Position numbers and translations under genes: made by a program | The notes under the pieces: generated by a model | What the model was told of the DNA's origin: nothing | Databases searched by the model: none | The model's input: only the letters and a program-made list of their open reading frames with translations | NCBI RefSeq assembly: GCF_044704955.1 | Contig: NW_027254520.1 | Coordinates: forward strand, 2,728,001-2,792,000 | DNA: 64,000 bases | Direction: 5' to 3' | Origin: Pristiophorus japonicus | Lineage: Eukaryota | In this document: in pieces, positions 34,941 through 51,350 of the stretch | Position numbering within the stretch: position 1 is the stretch's first letter | How the letters are laid out: every line of letters begins with the position of its first letter

Positions 34941-35845
34941 TCACTTCCCCGAAGTCAAAGGGAAATATATTTAGAAGGTGAGGCGGTCGGGAGACTTTCT
35001 TTCTCTGGTTCACCGCCTCGGTATAAAGGTCTGTTCTGTTGTGTTGGCTGTGCCTTCGCTCTGTTGGAATGTTGTTGGCCCTGCAGGGCTGCTGGATGAG
35101 GCTGGCTTACCTGGGATGTTGGGCGTGATGGGTTCGATTTTATAGTCCGGGGTGGTGTCATTGATCCTTTCGTTGTGTGTTGTGGGCTCGAAAAAGGTGC
35201 TGTCTGCTGTGGGTTGTTCAGGGCAGTCTGTGCACCGCAGGCTCGTTTGGTCCAGGTGATTTCTGCAATTTTTCCATTGTCTCGGTTGACTACAAACTCC
35301 CTACTCCCTTCATTAAATATCAACGTGCCTGCGGTCCACTTGGGACCATGTCCATAGTTTAGCACATACACAGAGTGATTCAGAACTATTTCCCGTGACA
35401 CAGTGGCGCGATCATCGCTTACATTTTGTTGCTGCCGCCTGCTCTGTACCTGATCATGCAGTTTGGGGTGAACTAACGAGAGTCTCGATTTAAGTATCCT
35501 TTTCATGCGTAGCTCAGCCGGGGGCACCCCTGTGTGCGAGTGTGTCTCGTGCCATAGCTGAGCAGTACTCGGAACAGGTACGTTTGGAGTGAGGCTTGTG
35601 TGACTCGTTTAAGGCTCTGTTGGATTGTTTGTTCTAGCCGCTCTGCCTGCCCATTGTCGGCTGGTTTAAGCGGGTCCGACGTGACATGTTTGATCTCATT
35701 TCAGGTCATGAATTCTTTAAATTCGGTTCTGGTGAAACATGGCCCGTTGTAAGTGACCAGTATGTCAGGCAGTCCGTGGGTGGCAAACATGACCTTCAGG
35801 CTTTCAATGGTGGTGGTGGTGGTGTTTCTCGACATAATTTCACAT
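34941..35845 (-). mobile_element. Ty3/Gypsy integrase fragment (mirror of 2697-3604)
   Basis: PPAELRMKRILKSRLSLVHP...VYVLNYGHGPKWTAG; same junction with the satellite (GAGGCCTGAATGTGAAATTATGTCGA). Confidence 0.9.
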
Positions 35846-36256
35846 TCAGGCCTCACACACGGAGCACAGTGTAGGCAATGTGTGATTGAGTGTGCTATTA
35901 TTCACCCTAATCAGAGGCCTCACATAGGGAGCCCAGCGTAGATAGTGTGTGAGTGATTGTGTTAATATTCACCCTGATCACTTGCCTCACGCAGCGAGTC
36001 CAATGTAGACAGTGTGTGAGTGAGTGTGTTAATATTCACCCTGATCACATGCCTCACACAGGGAGCCCTGTGTAGACAGTGTGTGAGTTAGTGTGTTAAT
36101 ATTCACCCTGATCACAGGCCTCACACAGGGAGCCCAGTGTAGACAGGGTGTGTGTTAGTGTGTTAATATTCACCCTGATCACAAGCCTCATTCATGGAGG
36201 CCAGTGTGGAACGTGTATGAGTGAGTGTTTTAATATTCACTCTGATCACAGGCCTT
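35846..36256 (-). repeat. ~67-bp minisatellite, inverted, ~6 units
   Basis: Reverse complement of the 427-2696 unit. Confidence 0.92.
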
Positions 36257-36485
36257 CTGTTGCCCAGCTCTGGAACTCCCTGCATAAACCTCTCCATCTC
36301 TGCACTTCTCCATCATCCTTCAAGACGCTCCTTAAAATCGACCTCTTTAATGATGCTTTCAGTCACTTGCCCTAATTTTTCCTGATATGTCTCGGTGTCA
36401 AATGTTTTATTTCATCACACAACTGTGAAGCGCCTTGGGATGATTCACTCTGATAAAGGCGCCAAGTAAATACAAGTTATTGTGG
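36257..36485 (+). mobile_element. L2 LINE 3' tail
   Basis: QLWNSLHKPLHLCTSPSSFKTLLKIDLF then TGTGAAGCGCCTTGGGA...TAAAGGCGC...AAATACAAGTT, typical of an L2 3' end. Confidence 0.75.
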
Positions 36486-37800: not shown

Positions 37801-39234
37801 CATAGAAACATAGAAACATAGAAAATAGGTGCAGGAGTAGGCGATTCGGCCCTTCTAGCCTGCACCGCCATTCAATGAGTTCATGGCTGAACATTCAACT
37901 TCAGTACCCCATTCCTGCTTTCTCGCCATACCCCTTGATCCCCCTAGTAGTAAGGACCTCATCTAACTCCTTTTTGAATATATTTAGTGAATTGGCCTCA
38001 ACAACTTTCTGTGGTAGAGAATTCCACAGGTTCACCACTCTCTGGGTGAAGAAGTTCCTCCGCATCTCGGTCCTAAATGGCTCACCCCTTATCCTTAGAC
38101 TGTGACCTCAGGTTCTGGACTTCCCCAACATTGGGAACATTCTTCCTGCATCTAACCTGTCTAACCCCGTCAGAATTTTAAATGTTTCTATGAGGTCCCC
38201 TCTCATTCTTCTGAACTCCAGTGAATACAAGCCCAGTTCATCCAGTCTTTCTTGATAGGTCAGTCCCGCCATCCCGGGAATCAGTCTGGTGAACCTTCGC
38301 TGCACTCCCTCAATAGCAAGATTGTCCTTCCTCAGGTTAGGAGATCAAAACTGTACACAATACTCCAGGTGTGGCCTCACCAATGCCCTGTACAACTGTA
38401 GCAACACCTCCCTGCCCCTGTACTCAAATCCCCTTGCTATGAAGGCCAACATGCCATTTGCTTTCTTAACCGCCTGCTGCACCTGCATGCCAACCTTCAA
38501 TGACTGATGTACCATGACACCCAGGTCTCTTTGCACCTCCCCTTTTCCTAATCTGTCACCATTCAGATAATAGTCTGTCTCTCTGTTTTTACCACCAAAG
38601 TGGATAACCTCACATTTATCCACATTATACTTCATCTGCCATGCATTTGCCCACTCACCTAACCTATCCAAGTCGCTCTGCAGCCTCACAGCATCCTCCT
38701 CGCAGCTCACACTGCCACCCAACTTAGTGTCATCCGCAAATTTGGAGATACTACACTTAATCCCCTCATCTAATGTACAGTGTAAACAGCTGGGGCCCCA
38801 GCACAGAACCTTGCGGTACCCCACTATTCACTGTCTGCCATTCTGAAAAGTACCCATTTACTCCTACTCTTTGCTTCCTGTCTGACAAACAGTTCTCAAT
38901 CCATGTCAGTACACTATCCCCAATCCCATGTGCTCTAACTTTGCACATCAATCTCTTGTGTGGCACCTTGTCGAACGCCTTCTGAAAGTCCAAATATACC
39001 ACATCAACTGGTTCTCCCTTATCCACTCGACTGGAAACATCCTCAAAAATTCCAGAAGATTTGTCAAGCATGATTCCCTTTCACAAATCCATGCTGACTT
39101 GGACCTATCATGTCACCTCTTTCCAAATGCACTGCTATGATATCCTTAATAATTGATTCCATCATTTTACCCACTGCCGATGTCAGGCTGACCGGTCTAT
39201 AATTCCCTGTTTTCTCTCTCCCTCCTTTTTTAAA
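37801..39234 (-). mobile_element. CR1 LINE, 5'-truncated, relatively young
   Basis: Near-consensus RT ([34 protein letters not shown]); (CATAGAAA)x3 tail; TGTGTAA repeated at both ends (likely TSD). Confidence 0.95.
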
Positions 39235-39784
39235 AATGTGTAAGTGTGCACATGTGTTCCTGGGTAAGTGTTTGAGTGTGTACGTGTATGAGTATGTGAA
39301 TCTGTAAGTGTGTGCGAGTGTCTATGTGTGCGCATGTGTGTGCGTGATTGTGTATCTTTGAGTATATGCGTGAGTAAGTGCGTGAGTGTGTAAGAGAGTG
39401 ATTATATACATCTGTGCCTGGGTGTGTGGGTGAGTAAGTGCGTGACTTTGTGAATGTGCAAGTTTGGAAGTGTGTGTCTGTGTGTGTGTGTGTGTGTAAG
39501 TCTGTGAGTGTATAAGTGTGTGTATAAGTGTGTGTGTAATTGTGTGTGTGTGAGTGTGTGTGTGAGTGTGTGTCTGAGTGTCTGCGTATGAGTGTGTGTT
39601 CATAACCGTGTGTCTGTTTAAGTGAGTGAGTGTGTAAGTGTGTATGTGTGTGTCTGGTTATGTGTTTGAGTGTGTATGTCGGTGAGATTGTGCCTGAGTG
39701 TGTGTGTGTGTGTGAGTTTCTCTGTGTGTGTGTGTGTGTGTGTGTGTGTCTGTAACTGTGTATGTGAGTTGCTGTGTGCGTGCG

Positions 39785-42200
39785 GGCAGCGTTCAAGGCA
39801 TCACCCGCAAAGGCGCTGGTGGCCCAGACAAGATTCGGTATCTTGGACATTGTGTCAGTCAGGGCAAGCAATACATGACAGAGGTAAGACGGATGGCTAT
39901 TGAAGACATGCCTAAGCCCCAGAATGTCAGTGGAGTAAGAAGGTATTACGACATTTTAATCATAGTTGGAATGTTCACACAATAATAGCGGAACCCATAC
40001 AGAAATTAATTAAATGGACCGGGGGACCCCTACATCTGATAGATTGCGGACCGGAGCAGGACGAGGCATATGGTGAACTGAATGAGATCTGATGTCGTCC
40101 CCCGACCTAGATCCCAATAAACCTTTCCAACTACATTGTGATCAGGATGATGGAAGCTATTCAACCGGGGTAATGCAGGTACATGGTTGCCAGCAGGGAC
40201 CTATAGCCTGCTAATCGACGAAGAAAGTCCCAGTAGTCAGGGGAATGCCTCGATGTGTGGCTGCCCTGGACTGTGCGACTTGGGCGGTCAAAGTAAGCCA
40301 ACCAGTAGTGATGATGGGACAGGTGATTTTGCACCAACAACATAACCTTGTAGAACTACTAAATACTAGAAAGCTGCGGTCGATCTCGGACAGCCGAAAA
40401 GCTAAGTGGTAGGCGGTATTCCTGCCCAAAGAAAAGTCAGTAATAATCAAAAAGCATAATGCAATTAAGCTCGCTACCGGGGTGCTGACAAAAGGAGAAG
40501 AACATAGCTCTCGGGAACAAGTAGAGGGGGAAACGCATAGCGGGGGTAAGGAAGAACCATTGGACAATACTGATGAGTCTTTCAACGTGGATGGATCCAG
40601 AAAATACATTTATGGAGAATCCCATACTAGGTGGGCAGTGGTAACATAGGAGGGAGAGAAAATAATTTTAGGATCGCTCCGAGGAGACAAGTCACCTCAA
40701 GTGGCAGAACTGGTATAAAGGCTCTCGAGTCAGCGAAATGAAAGTGAGCAAACAAATATACAGATAATCAATTTGCCTTTGGAGTGCTTCACCACTATAT
40801 GGCAGCCTGGTCACGACGAGGGTATGTGAGATCTACTGGCGAAGTGGTAAAAGATGGAAAGCTAGCAGAAAGTCTAGTGAAACCAGAAAAGGAACCAAGT
40901 GGAGCAGCGGCAATAAAGGTAAAAGCACAAACAAAACTAACTGGTCAGGGCCAAAAGCACCCTCAAGACCTACTCATCAACGGGAATAGGTTTGCATACC
41001 TCGGAGCCCAACGACTGGCAGTTGAACGGCACCCAGAGCCATCATGTAGGGCTGAAATTCAACCAGTAATGACAAAAGTGTTCAGACTGATATAAGTATA
41101 GCAACGGTCCACAAGAGTGTCGAGCAGGAATAAAGACGTGAATGGAGTCCATGAAAAGGGTATCATGTGAGTATGGGTTCCCCATGAGCAAGTTGTGGCG
41201 CCATATCACGCGATAACACCTAACGGGAGAAGGAACATGCTGCAACTGATCTCGCAGTACTGGTAGTGGCCAGGAATGGGGAAGGATGTCGATAAATGTT
41301 GCCAAAGGTGCATTGTTTGTGCCCAACATAACGTAGGCAGGGGATGCAAGGCCGCAATGGGACATCAGCCAAGGTCATTGGAACCTCGGGACAATTTACA
41401 GATAGACTTCACCGGCCCCCTGCAAGAGGATAGGGGAAAAAGGTTTTGCCGTGTAATCATAAACCAATTCACACGGTGGGTGGAAGCCTTCACTATCAGG
41501 CATTACTCCACTCGGACGGTAGCAAAGATCCTGGCAAGCGAGGTGATATCTCGGTGGGGTGTATCCCTACAGATAGATTCAGACAATAGGATACATTTCA
41601 AGCGCAAATTAATGAAAGAAACATGTGCACTGCTGGGAATCAAACAGAGGTTCCATATACAATATCATCCCCAATGTTCTGGTATGGTGGAAAAAAGAAT
41701 AGGACCTTAAAAACGACACTTCCCAAAGCAATCCAGGAGACAGGCAAAGGATAGACAGGTCTGTTTGAGGCAATTTTAATGCGGCTCAAAGCCACTCCAG
41801 GGCGAACCACGGGACTAACACCACATCAGCTGGTGATTGGATGGGATATGAGGCTACCAGAGGACTTATCCGGAGGGACAGGTGAAGCAGGACCAATTTA
41901 GGAAAGGTTGAGGCGGTTCTTGATCCAGCTAAACCAAGAGATGCAGGCTATGAATAAAGAAGTTAGAAGCAGACAGCAGATCAGAGACCGAGAAATTCAG
42001 AATGAGGGAATGAGACCCGAAGCGCGAGCTAACATAGGAGAACAGGTCATAAAAATTTGACAGGGATCCGAAAGGGAATGGAGCCCCGATGGATGGGGCC
42101 ATACTCGGTACTAATGACAAGCGATACTTGTGTTTGTCTACAGAAGCCCACTGGGAATATATGCAAACACTGGACACAGGTAAAATCATATGACACTAAA
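39785..42200 (+). pseudogene. pol: Retroviral pol remnant (RT thumb, RNase H, integrase)
   Basis: YLGHCVSQG..MPKPQNVSGVR; NVDGSRK..SPQVAEL; IYTDNQFAFGVLH..WSRRGY..IKVKA..GNRFA; CIVCAQHN, LQIDFTGPL, FTRWVEAF, QIDSDN, YHPQCSGMVE, PRWMGPY..KHWTQVK; frameshifts and stops. Confidence 0.9.
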
Positions 42201-42228
42201 CAATTCCCGTCTGTTTTAACCCAAAGTG

Positions 42229-44257
42229 ATGGTGCGCCTGGTAACCACGGAAGCGTCCGATACAGAGCTTGCAGAACACAACGGATTGGACCTGTGGATT
42301 GTGCTGCTGGTGACTGGGTTAGTAGCCGCCATGACCTCCCAGTGCCTCAAGAGATACGTTTGGAAGGAAAAGGGCGTAGACGTTATTATATGTAGAAGGC
42401 CCACCTAGACGCAATTCTGGGACACTGTACATTGAAAATAGGTGCAGGAGTAGGCCAATCATGCTCCACCGGAATTAAATGTCATGTATTTGATTTTCGA
42501 TTAGACTATCAACGGTGGACCTATTCGGCACCACGCTGTGCCAATTTTATGCTGATCACCCATAAGAATGAGAATGTTACCTTCAACTTTACATGGATGA
42601 CCGACGGTCCAGGGATGATCTGTAAGCGAGGTTGTGACGATACTTCCCAGAATATAAACAAAATACTGAAAGAAGCCGGGAATACTAATAAAACGGAGTA
42701 TACCAATAGTGCAGAGTGGAGAAAGGGAATGTTGGATGAGGAGACTGGCTGTTGTGTAGGAATAATTCAGAGTTTGGCAGGAGGAGTACATGGCTCGTCA
42801 TGATAAGAGGAAAATATCTCCGTCCCAACGAGGAATGGATGCCACATTTACAAATGCTGCACGATACGTGTCTGAGCACACTGATAGCACCTGCAATAAT
42901 AAGTGCAACAATAAATATACAGCATCATCAATAGATGGTACCCAGGTATTATAAGAACCTGGATCTTGCTCTAAAGACAACCAAAGCTCACAATCGGCCA
43001 AATGTACTAGATGGAGTACTGGAACGGTTAGGAACGGGATTAGCAGTATTAATTCAATGGATATCGAAACGCTGCTGAATAAAATACAGAAAGCGGGACT
43101 ATTGACTAACGATGCCATAAGGCTGTCAGATGTGTGGCAAGAGAACTTACAGGCCAATAGCCTGCGGGGATGACTGTCAGACAAAATGATTTGGGAGTGG
43201 TCGAACAAAACTAACTGGGAACAGCAAAATGTATCGGCCAATTTAATGCGGGAAGCCAATGAGACTCACTGCCTTAAAATGGCCCTGATCAGCGAAGGAC
43301 ATCGGGCTGAATTCGAAAGGATAGCATTCACTGGAAATGCCCGACGATGGGCTAAACTGTTTCAGTTTGACCACCGAACGCTAACACTCAGGCCATATAT
43401 GAAGCATGCGCGATGTGATGAAGAGGGATGTAATATTGTTAGCTAATGTTGCTAACAGTCAGATATGTTGTACGTTTGTGGTCCTACCACAGCTATTCGG
43501 TAAAATCTTATGGAAGCCACAGTTTTAAGGAAAATGGATCGATCCGAATAATAAAACACACGAAGTGAAGGACTGGATAAAGTGGCCATTCGGGCAAGTA
43601 TGCCCACTACATACAGAAGAGGTGGAACCATTCTTCATCGAAGGCACAACAGGGGCTTTTGAATGGCAGCTGCATCCATTAAATGATACCGTAATAGATG
43701 AAATCGGACAAAACTACATATGTGTAACCAATACCCACACGGTATATTTGTACGCGGATCGATTGGAACCCCCGGTAAATGCATGCCAGAAGGAAATGTA
43801 TGTCATCTCCGACGGTAAAACGACCAAGTCCTATCAAATAGGAGAATGGAAAAGCAGTGCTCTATACAGGAGCAACAAAGGACTGTCCGTACTACCACCA
43901 TGGGTGAACTTGAGAAAGTTAAGGACCTTCCTTGAGAAACTCATTCAGGTGACCAAGTACCTGGGAGAAGAATGGGAACGGTTATTCAGACAAAAGGTCC
44001 TTATGAGTTACACAAAACAAGAACTTATCCGAGTGACGGAGGAACTAAATGCCCTGGTTCATCACTGGATGGACATTTTTAAGGGCTGGTCAGCTAAGGC
44101 CTACGCTGTCCACAAATTGATGTGGCGCAGAATTGTGGTAATAATGGTAGTGGTAGGCATATGTATCATGATCCAACTGTAACTTATGTGCAACAGTCGA
44201 GGGATACACAACCGCGTGGTTCAAGCCGAACAGGAAAAAGCCTTGTCAACTGTGTAA
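42229..44257 (+). pseudogene. env: Retroviral env remnant
   Basis: Hydrophobic signal LWIVLLVTGLVAA, Cys/N-glycan-rich SU, fusion-peptide-like NVLDGVLERLGTGLAVL then (frameshift) NSMDIETLLNKI, membrane-proximal HHWMDIFKGWS, anchor IVVIMVVVGICIMIQL; several stops and frameshifts. Confidence 0.8.
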
Positions 44258-44519
44258 CGTAGGTGTGATAGGGATGCGAATGATTATGTAACACATTAGG
44301 GAAACAACTAATACCCCCGAGCTTACGCTATATATGTACAAAAATTAAATATAAGTAACTAGCCTATAATTTCATGGAAATGGTCAGGGGTAGCAGTTAA
44401 AGACTCCAATAATGGAACGAACCAAAGGAAATTGAGTTGATCACCTTTTCCAGCAAATGGCTCAGAATATATGTGGTCGGCTGATTATTTAGAAATAATC
44501 AGCGACCAACAGGAGGGAC

Positions 44520-45013
44520 TGAAGAGGTAAATTACAATTCTTTATACTATTAATAATTGGGCCATTTTAAAATTAAGCTAACTGAGTTTAAAATGGAACC
44601 CAAGGACTGTGGTAAACATTTCACAGAGAAGCAAATGTTCTAGTTCACAGACCAAGGCCTTGGGATGCACGTACAGAGCGAGAAAACATAGAAACTGAAG
44701 CCACAACAAGATAAAGGTAGAATAGAAATGGACACTTTTGCAAGTGTACAGACTTACCAATTAAGGCATACGGAAGGCAGACAGAAAGAAGTGCTGTACC
44801 AATATATTAATCAATCATCTTGTATCAATTATCATGTATTAATTCAACTTGTGTATTTTTGTAATAACTTAATCTGAAATTGTATAAAGGAAGATGACTC
44901 CAGGCACATGTTTGAGCATTATTTCACAGAATAGCTCAGCTGACTGCTTGTATCTGTGAATGTAAAGTAACAGCATTTATCTTAAGGCTAACTGACTCCG
45001 AGAGGTGGTTTCA
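44520..45013 (+). mobile_element. ERV 3' LTR
   Basis: Follows PPT AACAGGAGGGAC, begins TGAAG, has a TATAAA box near 44883, and ends at TTTCA (TGAA...TTCA termini). The end is inferred because there is no second LTR to compare. Confidence 0.65.
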
Positions 45014-45031
45014 AGTTAACCCGAACAGAAA

Positions 45032-46210
45032 GTACGAGCGAGGTCAGTTATGTAACTGGATGGGTAGTGACAGTATGAGCGAGGTCAGTGATGTATCTGG
45101 ATGTCTAGTGATACTATGAGTGAGGTCAGTGATGTAGTTGGATGGATAGAGAAAGTTTGATTGAAATCTGTGTTGTATCTAGAAGGGTAGTGAACGTATG
45201 AATGAGGTCAGTAATGTATCTGGATGGGCAGTGACAGTATGAGTGAGGTCAGTGATGTAACTTGAGGGGTAGTGAAAGTATGACTGATGTCAATGCGGTA
45301 TTTAGAAGTTGGTGACGGTATGAGTGAGGCCAGTGGTGTAACTGGATTGGTCGTGACAGTGTGAGTGAGGTGACTGATGTGCCTGGATGTGTAGTGACCG
45401 TTTCGTTGAGGTCACTTATGTATCTAGATTGGTAGAGGCAGCATGAGTGTGGTCACAGATATATATGGATGGGTACTGACAGTATGAGTGAGATCAGTGA
45501 TGTAACTTGAAGGGTAGTGACAGTATGAGTTAGGCCAATAAGGTATTTAGGTGGGCTGACTGTATGAGTGAGATCAGAGATGTATCTGGATGGGTATTGA
45601 GAGTATGAGTGAGGTCAGTGATGGATTCGAATGGGCAGTGACAGTATGAGTGAGGTCAGTGATGGACTCGGATGGGCAGTGACAGTATGAGTGAAGTCAG
45701 TGATGTATCTGGATGTGTAGTGACAGTATGAGTGAAGTCAGTGATGTATCTGGATGGGTAATAATAGTGTGAGTGAGGTCAGTGATGTACCTCGATGGGT
45801 AGTGATACTATGAGTGAGGTCAGTGATGTATCTGGATGGGCAGTGACAGTATGAGTGAGGTCAGTGATGTATCTGGATGCGTAGTGACAGTATGAGTGAA
45901 GTCAGTGATGTATCTGGATGGGTAATAATAGTGTGAGTGAGGTCAGTGATGTACCTCGATGGGTAGTGATACGATGAGTGAGGTCAGTGATGTATCTTGA
46001 TGGGCAGTGACAGCATGAGTAAGGTTAGTGATGCAGCTGGATGGGAAGTAAAAGTATGAGTGAGGTCAGTGATGCACCTGGGTGGATAGTGACAGTATGA
46101 GTAAGGTTAGTGATGCACCTGGATGGGTAATAACAGTATGAGTGAGGTCAGTGATGTATCTGGATCGGTAGTGATAGTATGAGTGAGATCAGTGATGAAT
46201 CTGGATGTAT
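45032..46210 (+). repeat. 41-bp minisatellite
   Basis: Consensus GTATGAGTGAGGTCAGTGATGTATCTGGATGGGTAGTGACA, ~28 units. Confidence 0.93.
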
Positions 46211-46814
46211 TTTGAGAGTACGCTTGAGAGCAACGATAAACATTGAATGGTCTGTAACTGTTGATATTATGTCAGTGATATATCCAAATAGCCACCAAAT
46301 CTTACCGCATCTTCTATGTGAAGCGATGATTTCTGTTGTTGGAGTTGCAAATTCCAGTGAGTCTTTCAGATTTGATCACCATATTAGTACCAGTCGCTTG
46401 CACACAGCAGCATCAGGAATTATTCGCGGTCATGTTCATTAAACAACTGAATTTATTTATATGCAGATATCGAGAAGGGGCAATCAGTTTCACAAAAGGG
46501 CAGTTTCTGAACAAACCACATTTGCTAAAGTAGCATGATCGTTATATCGTACTGTAACAGATAATGTTCGTTGTGATCTGACTTGCTCCGTGGAGCATGG
46601 ACCGTCTTGAGTGCACAATGATCATTATCACGTACTGCCCCAGTGAATGTTCGTTATAAACTGACTTGCACCATGGTGCAAGGACGGACCTCGGTAAATT
46701 GGAAGGACAGTCGCTGAAATGGCAGGAACAATTTATTACTTAAATTCCCAAAAATCTCACTGGAAATCTGCCATTGCTGTCACACTGTAGTACCCACATG
46801 CGCTAAGCTTCCCA

Positions 46815-49711: not shown

Positions 49712-50215
49712 TATATGGATGTGTAGTGACACTATGAGAGAAGTCAGTGTTAAATCATGATGGATAGTGACAGTAGGCGTGAGGTCAGTGATATACCTGG
49801 ATGGGTAGTGACAGTATGAGTGAGGTCAGTGTCTGTAAGTGGATGGGTAGTGACAGTATGACTGAGGTCAGTGATGTAGCTGGTTGGGCGGTGACAGTAT
49901 GAGTGAGGTCAATGATGTATCTGGATGGGTAGTGACAGTAGGAGTGAGGTCAGTGATGTAACTGGATGGACAGTGAGAGTATGAGTGAGGCGAGTGATGT
50001 AGCTGGATGGGCAGTGAGAGTATGAGTGAGGTCAGTAATGTATCTGACTGAGTAGGAACAGTATTAGTGAGGTCAGTGATGTATCTGGATGGGTAGTGAG
50101 AATATGAATGAGGTCAGTGATGTACCTGGAAGTGCATTGACAATATGAATGAGATCAGTGATGTATCTGCATGGGTAGTGACTGTATGAGTGAGGTCAGT
50201 GATGTATCTCGATGG
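49712..50215 (+). repeat. 41-bp minisatellite, second block
   Basis: Same consensus as 45032-46210. Confidence 0.92.
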
Positions 50216-51350
50216 GTATTGGGGGTAATATACTGACGTGGATCGAGAACCTGTTGGCAGACAGGAAGCAGAGAGTCGGGATAAACGGGTCCTTTTCAGA
50301 AAGGCAGGCAGTGACAAGTGGAGTGCCCCAGGGCTCAGTGCTGGTGCCCCAGCTCTTTATAATATACATCAATGATTTGAATGATGGAATTAAGTGTCAT
50401 ATCTCCAGGTTTGCAAATGACATTAAAATGGGTGGCGGTGTGAACTGTGAGGAGGACGCTAAGAGGCTGCAGGATGATTTGGACATGTTAGGTGAGTGGG
50501 CAAATGCATGGCAGATGCAGTTTAATGTGGATAAAGGTGAGGTTATCCACTTTGGCGGAAAAAACACGAAGGCAGAATATTATCTGAATGGTGGCAGATT
50601 AGGAAAAGTGAGGTGCTACGAGACCTGCGTGTCATGGTTCATCAGTCATTGGAAATTTGCATACAGGTACAGCAGGCGGTGAAGAAGGCAAATGATATGT
50701 TGGCCTTCATCGCTAGTGGACTTGAGTATAGGAGCAGGAGGCCCTTGCTGCAGGTGTGCAGGGCCTTGGTGAAGCTTCACCTGGAATATTTTGTTCAGTT
50801 TTGTTCAACTAATCTGAGGAAGAACGTTCTTGCTATTGAGGGAGTGAAGCGAAGGTTCACCAGACTGATTCCCGCGATAGCAGGACTTACATTTGAGGAG
50901 AGACTGGATCGACTGGGCCTTTATACATTGGAATTTGGAAGGATGAGAGGGGATCTCATAGAAACGTACAAGATTCTAACGGGTCGGGACAGGTTAGATG
51001 CAAGTAGAGTGTTCCCTATGTTGGGGAAGTCCACGACCAGGGAACACAGTCTTTGGATAAGGGGTAGGCCATTTAGGACTGAGATGAGGAGAAACTTCTT
51101 CACTCAGAGAGTAGTGAAACTGTGGAATTCCCTGCCGCAGACAGTTGTTGATGCCAGTCCATTGGATATATTGTAGAGTGAGTTAGATATGGCCCATATG
51201 TGTAAGAGGATCAATGGGTATGGAGAGAAAGCAAGAAAGGGGTACTGAGGTGAATAATCAGCCATGATCTTATTGAATGGCAGTGCAGGCTCGACGGAAC
51301 GAATGGCCAATCCTTGCACCTATGTTCTATATTTCTTTGTTTCTATTTTC
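50212..51350 (+). mobile_element. CR1 LINE, 5'-truncated
   Basis: [42 protein letters not shown]; degenerate tail. Confidence 0.93.

Follow-up and report, generated by a model that had tools for sequence, protein, structure and literature searches.

A dead, likely SnRV-like endogenous retrovirus of Pristiophorus japonicus and its predicted paramyxovirus F-type envelope

Envelope (Env) proteins related to the fusion protein (F) of paramyxoviruses have been published for lokiretroviruses (PMC7947760), foamy viruses (PMC11468914), and invertebrate errantiviruses (bioRxiv 2023.10.26.564294). The 2024 paper on the foamy Env structure places orthoretroviral Env in a subclass separate from F and uses this difference to support the split between retroviral subfamilies (PMC11468914), and Viro3D expects more retroviral F-type cases to turn up (PMC12583693). 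Here we describe a dead, 5′-truncated, partial endogenous retrovirus (ERV) on the + strand at positions 39782 to 45027 of a 64,000-nucleotide stretch of the Pristiophorus japonicus genome (contig NW_027254520.1, positions 2,728,001 to 2,792,000; hereafter, the window). Its pol gene likely represents a new family of the known clade of snakehead retrovirus (SnRV), and its env gene is predicted to encode an F-type protein. We found no published report of an F fold for Ovex1-type, epsilon-like, SnRV-like, or ERV-L-like Env in the literature outside subscription journals. The pol lineage is known; the envelope type is apparently widespread across vertebrates and undescribed.

In reverse transcriptase (RT) and RNase H motifs compared by eye, the window family is closest to SnRV, whose clade (clade Huo) includes CmiERV lineage I (PMC4422223, PMC6001957). 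CmiERV lineage I also has an identical tRNA-Ser primer site and a cartilaginous-fish host (PMC4422223). The window-family Env is grouped with envelopes from retroviruses of other classes, and no accessory ORFs were seen, although none were sought. Ovex1 (chicken ORF3 and crocodilian Ovex1-related ERVs) has a homologous Env with the same fusion-peptide and pre-anchor motifs, likewise lacks the immunosuppressive domain (ISD) and the CX6CC motif, and likewise joins gag and pol through an amber codon (PMC2717909, PMC4299795); it differs in a surface subunit (SU) about twice as long and in its conserved host locus. The authors of Ovex1 noted the missing ISD and CX6CC, called its envelope identity uncertain, and proposed no fold (PMC2717909). 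Foamy virus Env is similar in its F-like core and long transmembrane subunit (TM) but is ~980 amino acids (aa) long, with a large receptor-binding domain insert and a leader peptide (PMC11468914). Lokiretroviruses, whose hosts include lampreys, bony fish, amphibians, and reptiles and whose RT clade is sister to all other retroviruses, are also retroviral elements with an F-related Env but have another pol lineage, a much shorter SU, and a different fusion peptide (PMC7947760).

Architecture and predicted fold of the envelope

The window env is split over five frame segments with in-frame stops, as seen in three-frame translation and alignment. Env divides at 43001, where a fusion-peptide-like stretch begins: 256 codons precede that point and 419 follow, and the membrane anchor sets the TM ectodomain at ~372 codons. 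A first-pass annotation, made from the letters of the stretch without database searches, had put the fusion peptide near 43001, with ~255 codons for leader plus SU and ~420 for TM, and had seen neither a gamma-type ISD nor CX6CC; all of this was borne out. In regular-expression scans, in which the window was represented by 43439 to 44221 only, CX6CC occurred in 0 of 14 genome rows and an ISD-type motif in 0 of 41 Env rows, and by eye neither was present in the window's three-frame translation. CX6CC was present in 2 of 27 database Env rows. A gamma-type Env carries both motifs in a TM ectodomain of ~140 aa, and the window Env, at ~372 codons, does not fit this pattern. In most Envs of the family, the fusion peptide is rich in glycine and comes after a basic site.

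We examined two structure models. The first is a natural, open Env of 679 aa from a young relative (L023; predicted local distance difference test score, 71.4), which is 35 to 37% identical to the window's TM pieces. The second is the env of a duplicate of the window copy (L026; 92.6% nucleotide identity to the window), read in one frame with X at stops (score, 70.8). In a Foldseek search of the PDB with the L023 model, all matches listed were F proteins of paramyxoviruses or pneumoviruses (best E value, 3.3e-7). The L026 model was compared with 48,161 chains, and its top 12 matches were all paramyxovirus or pneumovirus F or foamy Env, with Z scores of 5.7 to 8.0. These included 3maw (Z, 8.0; root mean square deviation [rmsd], 16.4; 288 residues aligned), 8tvb (Z, 7.0; rmsd, 4.6; 139 aligned), and foamy Env 8rm0 and 8rm1 (Z, 6.4 to 6.7). 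In a second structural search with L026, F or foamy Env made up 50 of the 50 matches listed. The models have the topology predicted for an F-type (class Ib) protein, with beta domains between heptad repeats A and B (HRA and HRB) and strands contributed by the N-terminal subunit; model residues 13 to 44, the last strands of SU, align with the first strands of F2. Moreover, a sequence profile (A2) matched Angavokely henipavirus F (E, 2.2e-4) in the cysteine-rich region. The family's TM ectodomain length of ~372 to 380 agrees with that of F1.

On these models, Env is likely an F-type (paramyxovirus/foamy-like) fusogen rather than an ordinary retroviral envelope. The split into a short SU and a long TM (256/419) would be explained by the match of the models to F and foamy Env, a fold that the first-pass account had not included. 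Coronavirus S2, the TM of human immunodeficiency virus, murine leukemia virus (MLV), and Ebola virus, and SnRV Env were absent among the structural matches listed except for short coiled-coil rows, which leaves room for kinship. A single-sequence Env search of the PDB returned nothing, and a word-indexed protein search returned nothing with a single Env and only three proteins with a profile. A profile match to F1 of parainfluenza virus 5 (4gip) was discounted, as it overlaps an added coiled-coil/His tag.

In a viral structure library, the top match of the L023 model was a 928-aa protein (E, 1e-13), the length of an open reading frame (ORF) of Bufonid herpesvirus 1. Env of walleye epidermal hyperplasia virus (WEHV1; E, 1.7e-10) and of walleye dermal sarcoma virus (WDSV; E, 4e-8) were also among the top viral matches of this full-length model. 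If WDSV Env is cleaved near residue 470, its TM ectodomain would be similarly long, since the first membrane helix lies at 850 to 874 (PMC3185748); this and the structural match make the first-pass statement that epsilon TM subunits are about half the length seen here probably wrong for WDSV and WEHV. These Envs differ in their total length of 1160 to 1320 aa, with a long SU and tail, and their match weakens for the L026 domain model.

The L023 Env retrieved 107 proteins from 1.84 billion. We looked up 20 of the 107 by name, and four more that were looked up were nameless; the named relatives come from sharks, bichir, teleosts, frogs, a caecilian, turtles, owls, chicken (Ovex1 ORF3), echidna, koala, marmoset, and Bufonid herpesvirus 1. 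The Env of one relative is 99% identical to a sawshark-labelled protein, and the next full-length match is from horn shark. Chicken Ovex1 ORF3 (NP_001159385; 873 aa) is conserved across galliforms and was matched with phmmer E values of 5e-17 from L023 and 3e-10 from L026 (41-sequence search). A 928-aa hypothetical protein of Bufonid herpesvirus 1 (YP_009552989; P0074) falls within the Env family, next to ERV envs from frogs, which suggests that this herpesvirus likely captured a retroviral env. Long, open Env-type ORFs (P0025, P0013, P0020, and P0029) were found in marmoset (601 aa), koala (603 to 630 aa, several loci), echidna, and galliforms (Ovex1 ORF3); these are candidate co-opted fusogens. 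Two database entries need separate mention: a "Bacteroidales" protein from a metagenome-assembled genome (P0126) falls in the koala Env cluster, most likely through contamination from the host, and a pipefish "quaking-A isoform" (P0215) falls in an Env cluster as an env joined to a host gene model. Next to a deleted family member, and on the other strand, a 494-aa frame (L082:6599-8080, − strand) weakly resembles the Env profile (E, 1e-4) and is possibly another distant F-type env.

Placement of pol and exchange of env

The RT tree comprised 57 rows and was built in quick mode with the Shimodaira-Hasegawa approximate likelihood ratio test (SH-aLRT) only; L085 and L086, with no RT in the fetched stretch, were left out. 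The window family and three sister families grouped with RTs from minnow, shark, and turtle (SH-aLRT, 96), apart from class I (99), two ERV-L-like loci, and two Gypsy rows. The window's own integrase fell among those of its family (support, 99) and joined the sister families at 94, in a tree that left out matches shorter than 80 aa (L029, L031, L040, and P0159). The best PDB matches of the family RT were foamy and MLV RT. Counted by eye over 75 columns of the alignment in the supplement of PMC7947760, RT identities were 51 for SnRV, 41 for HERV-L, 39 for Loki-Lch, 38 for simian foamy virus, and 37 for WDSV. Scans of IMG/VR with Env and Pol yielded no relatives.

Two independent two-LTR (long terminal repeat) members of the family, L029 and L031, have a gag with a CCHC zinc knuckle, an in-frame TAG between gag and pro, and a YVDD RT. 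Foamy Gag has no zinc knuckle, and foamy Pol is made separately. Unlike foamy viruses, the window family has both a zinc knuckle and an in-frame stop and so does not fit Spumaretrovirinae. Nor does it fit epsilon or class I retroviruses: its RT lies outside the 99% class I clade, and the target duplication at L031 is 5 bp, against 4 bp for epsilon/class I (PMC4299795). Based on pol and the primer site, with reference viruses compared by eye, pol is likely a new family of the SnRV-like clade. The first-pass annotation had foreseen an SnRV-like pol, a view supported by the two trees, the RT count, and the primer site of elephant-shark CmiERV lineage I (PMC4422223), and the grouping with Gypsy or ordinary gamma or epsilon elements that would have spoken against it was not seen. 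Its suggestion of a new lineage, poorly described in cartilaginous fish, was not supported, as SnRV-like ERVs were already described in one such fish, the elephant shark (PMC4422223).

The relationships of Env differ from those of pol. The window-family Env is 32 to 45% identical to the Env of epsilon-like (L021 to L025) and ERV-L-like (L040, L085, and L087) elements in the same genome, whose RTs are only 32 to 36% identical to that of the window family; these two labels denote tree position and by-eye likeness to WDSV and HERV-L. Among the ERV-L-like elements, RT was captured for L040 and L087 and the LTR pair for L087. For the epsilon-like proviruses, the LTR pairs of L021 to L023 and L039, the four with a captured pair, are 97.6 to 99.2% identical. 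In contrast, the pol-sister families, with RTs 57 to 61% identical, gave no significant pairwise Env match (best E, 0.09); their Envs are far more distant members of the same superfamily, found by profile only (E, 8e-12 to 4e-4). In the Env tree, the window-family, epsilon-like, and ERV-L-like Envs (11 rows) formed a 100% clade, and the approximately unbiased (AU) test rejected grouping the window-family Env with the pol-sister Envs (p, 1e-53). Because the same env clade stands behind SnRV-like, epsilon-like, and ERV-L-like pols in one genome, recombination likely moved env between the window family and shark retroviruses of the epsilon-like and ERV-L-like kinds, in either direction. The first-pass reading of env as a marker of the SnRV lineage is not supported, since its nearest relatives lie in epsilon-like and ERV-L-like proviruses and not in the pol-sister families.

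One sister SnRV-like family (L071, L072, and L078) has 100% identical LTR pairs and open gag, pol, and env, and open frames of 1179 to 1204 aa occurred in 12 of its 139 scored RT matches. The identical LTR pairs and open frames point to very recent insertion of this family. In L071, the codon at the gag-pol junction is TGA.

Layout, copies, and age of the window element

In order, the element consists of the end of RT, the tether, RNase H, integrase, env, a polypurine tract, and a single LTR (Table 1), much as first annotated. A tether with a second RNase H, integrase after RNase H, and env before the 3′ LTR are traits of Retroviridae rather than Gypsy. The integrase matched Pfam rve (E, 1.8e-12), Integrase_H2C2 (E, 7.9e-5), and, below the cutoff, MLVIN_C (E, 2.4e-4). 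A complete Pol from the same genome (P0004), which carries Pfam RT_RNaseH_2 at 649 to 741, is colinear with the window across late RT (39830 to 39973), tether (40116 to 40598), and RNase H plus integrase (40733 to 42191). The nucleotide match to L029 and L031 begins at 39782 and 39791, respectively. The element thus starts inside RT, and no second (5′) LTR or gag was found in the window. The span first given, 39785 to 45013, was about right: the LTR start at 44520 was correct, but alignment to the family LTRs carries its end from 45013 to 45027.

Table 1. Features of the endogenous retrovirus and its flanks in the window
Feature	Position	Strand	Basis and remarks
TG-rich microsatellite, host flank at 5′ truncation point	39230..39781	.	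Sequence; alignments to duplicates L026-L028 and L037-L038 continue through flank into element
RT C-terminal end; element truncated upstream	39782..40100	+	tblastn to Pol P0004 q576-675
Tether (degenerate first RNase H)	40116..40570	+	Aligned to Pol P0004 q676-841
Retroviral (second) RNase H, broken	40575..41040	+	Aligned to RNase_H domain of P0004; SnRV RNase H-like motifs by eye
Integrase, broken: zinc-finger end, DDE core 41384-41671, GPY/F-type C terminus	41200..42191	+	Pfam, tree
env leader + SU, ~256 codons	42232..43000	+	Signal-like hydrophobic stretch 42292-42348; last ~60 codons predicted F2-like strands
env TM subunit, ~419 codons	43001..44258	+	Fusion peptide, HRA, cysteine-rich beta domains, HRB (predicted), anchor 44117-44173, short tail
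Polypurine tract	44508..44519	+	Directly before LTR; same in L029/L031
3′ LTR, TG...CA, 508 bp	44520..45027	+	70-77% match to both LTRs of L031, L030, and L035
41-bp tandem satellite, host flank	45028..46250	.	Common to duplicates

We searched the 5.9-Gb genome for copies. Of 1792 first-look candidates for the env piece, 150 were scored and gave 151 genome matches, and the LTR gave 646 first-look candidates, of which 40 were scored (81 to 100%, including the window's own copy). The nearest copies, L026 to L028 (about 93 to 95%) and L037 to L038 (~78 to 86%), match the window through both flanks and are therefore segmental duplicates of one insertion. Independent two-LTR members such as L029 and L031 have 79 to 81% nucleotide identity to the window copy. 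The primer site of two-LTR members matches tRNA-Ser(AGA) genes of the same genome at all three loci tested. LTR-pair distances in four family members were 0.028 to 0.084, which correspond to about 6 to 19 million years at a mammalian rate or 63 to 190 million years at the rate that PMC4422223 assumes for sharks; the age of the family is thus poorly fixed.

Several other features of the region and genome were recorded. The tRNA-Ser 3′-end pattern had 1022 exact matches genome-wide and occurred in long tandem arrays with ~1.95-kb spacing at G000:C23:17-20.5 Mb. Tandem satellites of 67 bp and 41 bp lie at window positions 423 to 2750, 35780 to 36315, 45028 to 46330, and 49752 to 50297, and many CR1-like LINE (long interspersed nuclear element) and Gypsy-like fragments are scattered across the window, as is typical of a repeat-rich, duplicated region.

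Competing explanations and significance

We consider it quite probable that the window element is a dead, 5′-truncated provirus of a retrovirus with a likely SnRV-like pol and a predicted F-type Env, which its lineage and shark retroviruses of the epsilon-like and ERV-L-like kinds have likely traded through recombination. In two-LTR copies the gene order is LTR-gag-TAG-pro-pol-env-LTR, and read-through of the TAG would produce Pol. By analogy with relatives, an Env precursor with a signal peptide would be cut at the basic site into an SU of ~220 to 250 aa and a TM of ~420 to 460 aa. SU is predicted to comprise a small N-terminal beta domain, the candidate receptor-binding part, and F2-like strands that would stay in the fusion machine. 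Cysteine-rich F1 beta domains would sit between HRA and HRB in place of the short ISD/CX6CC loop of a gamma-type TM, and this would account for the length of TM. If the protein behaves like F, it would form a trimer in which, on triggering, HRA extends and inserts the fusion peptide (PMC11468914), and HRB would then zip back. In the window copy itself, the 5′ half is gone and stops and frameshifts have accumulated. Segmental duplication in the host has multiplied this copy along with its flanks, and no virus is produced from it.

It is important to note that several observations weigh against this account. A basic cleavage motif (R-X-K/R-R), present in 33 of 41 Env rows, is not intact in the window's family, the window copy included. 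None of 34 database proteins matched a Pfam Env family, the genome Envs had only weak, unrelated Pfam matches, and a second profile (A1) had no significant PDB match. All structure evidence comes from monomer models with predicted template modeling scores of 0.52 to 0.54. Further, the Z scores are at a level that the tool calls middling and the rmsd values are large, because the models mix pre- and postfusion geometry, and the L026 domain model matched WEHV1 only at E 0.04, with WDSV absent among the matches listed. The trees contain no named viruses, so that "SnRV-like," "epsilon-like," and "ERV-L-like" denote by-eye comparison with the alignments of one paper and Pfam content; the trees carry long-branch warnings in addition to their quick mode.

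The middling scores would also be expected if the match to F were an artefact of long helices and beta-rich models, with Env unrelated to F or derived from a gamma-type protein by insertion; coiled-coil noise below rank 8 in one structural search and the lack of a Pfam Fusion_gly match point the same way. We think this very unlikely, because two models whose sequences are only ~33% identical put the same family on top of three libraries, the structural matches span model residues 13 to 355 and include the beta domains, the profile match to henipavirus F is independent of the models, and ISD and CX6CC are missing from the genome rows. The element could instead be a shark lokiretrovirus, which would merely extend the host range of a lineage already known to have an F-like Env. 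Lokiretroviruses do have a tether and RNase H and an Env similar to paramyxovirus F (PMC7947760), and their RT motifs overlap with those of the window family. We give this very little credence, given the by-eye count of 39 of 75 RT columns for Loki-Lch against 51 for SnRV (with lokiretroviruses absent from our trees), a different motif before the FH/FN step, and a loki Env that, as printed in the supplement of PMC7947760, has an SU of ~100 aa and a different fusion peptide.

An explanation without exchange would make F-type env native to all these lineages and vertically inherited, the mismatch with pol being due to slow env evolution or tree error. In its favor, a remote relative from the same Env superfamily is present in the pol-sister families, and in invertebrate elements F-type env and pol are said to move together for the most part (bioRxiv 2023.10.26.564294). 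However, Env can be aligned at 32 to 45% identity where RTs share 32 to 36%, yet it cannot be aligned pairwise where RTs share 57 to 61%; with the AU rejection of grouping by pol, this largely refutes strict vertical descent and leaves the explanation very unlikely. An ancestral F-type env with later swapping is compatible with the exchange that we favor, and both can be true.

We tentatively propose, with a little less than even confidence, that F-type Env is an unrecognized third envelope class of orthoretrovirus-type ERVs, homologous to paramyxovirus F and foamy Env and ranging from sharks to primates. It would have been swapped among SnRV-like, epsilon-like, and ERV-L-like viruses, probably include the Envs of walleye epsilonretroviruses, have been captured by a toad herpesvirus, and survive in intact genes, chicken Ovex1 ORF3 among them; retroviruses may have started out with this envelope and only later put gamma- and beta-type Env in its place. 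The window copy is a degraded pointer to this Env family, and the F-type fold is its main interest. If true, the subfamily split drawn in PMC11468914 would no longer hold, since epsilon-like, SnRV-like, and ERV-L-like proviruses would carry an F-type Env too, and this would bear on the envelope of the first retroviruses. Ovex1 ORF3, which is expressed in the gonads of birds and whose envelope identity was left uncertain in 2009 (PMC2717909), would gain a fold and a function that can be tested, and the intact ORFs of marmoset, koala, and echidna would be of a kind that escapes screens keyed on ISD and CX6CC.

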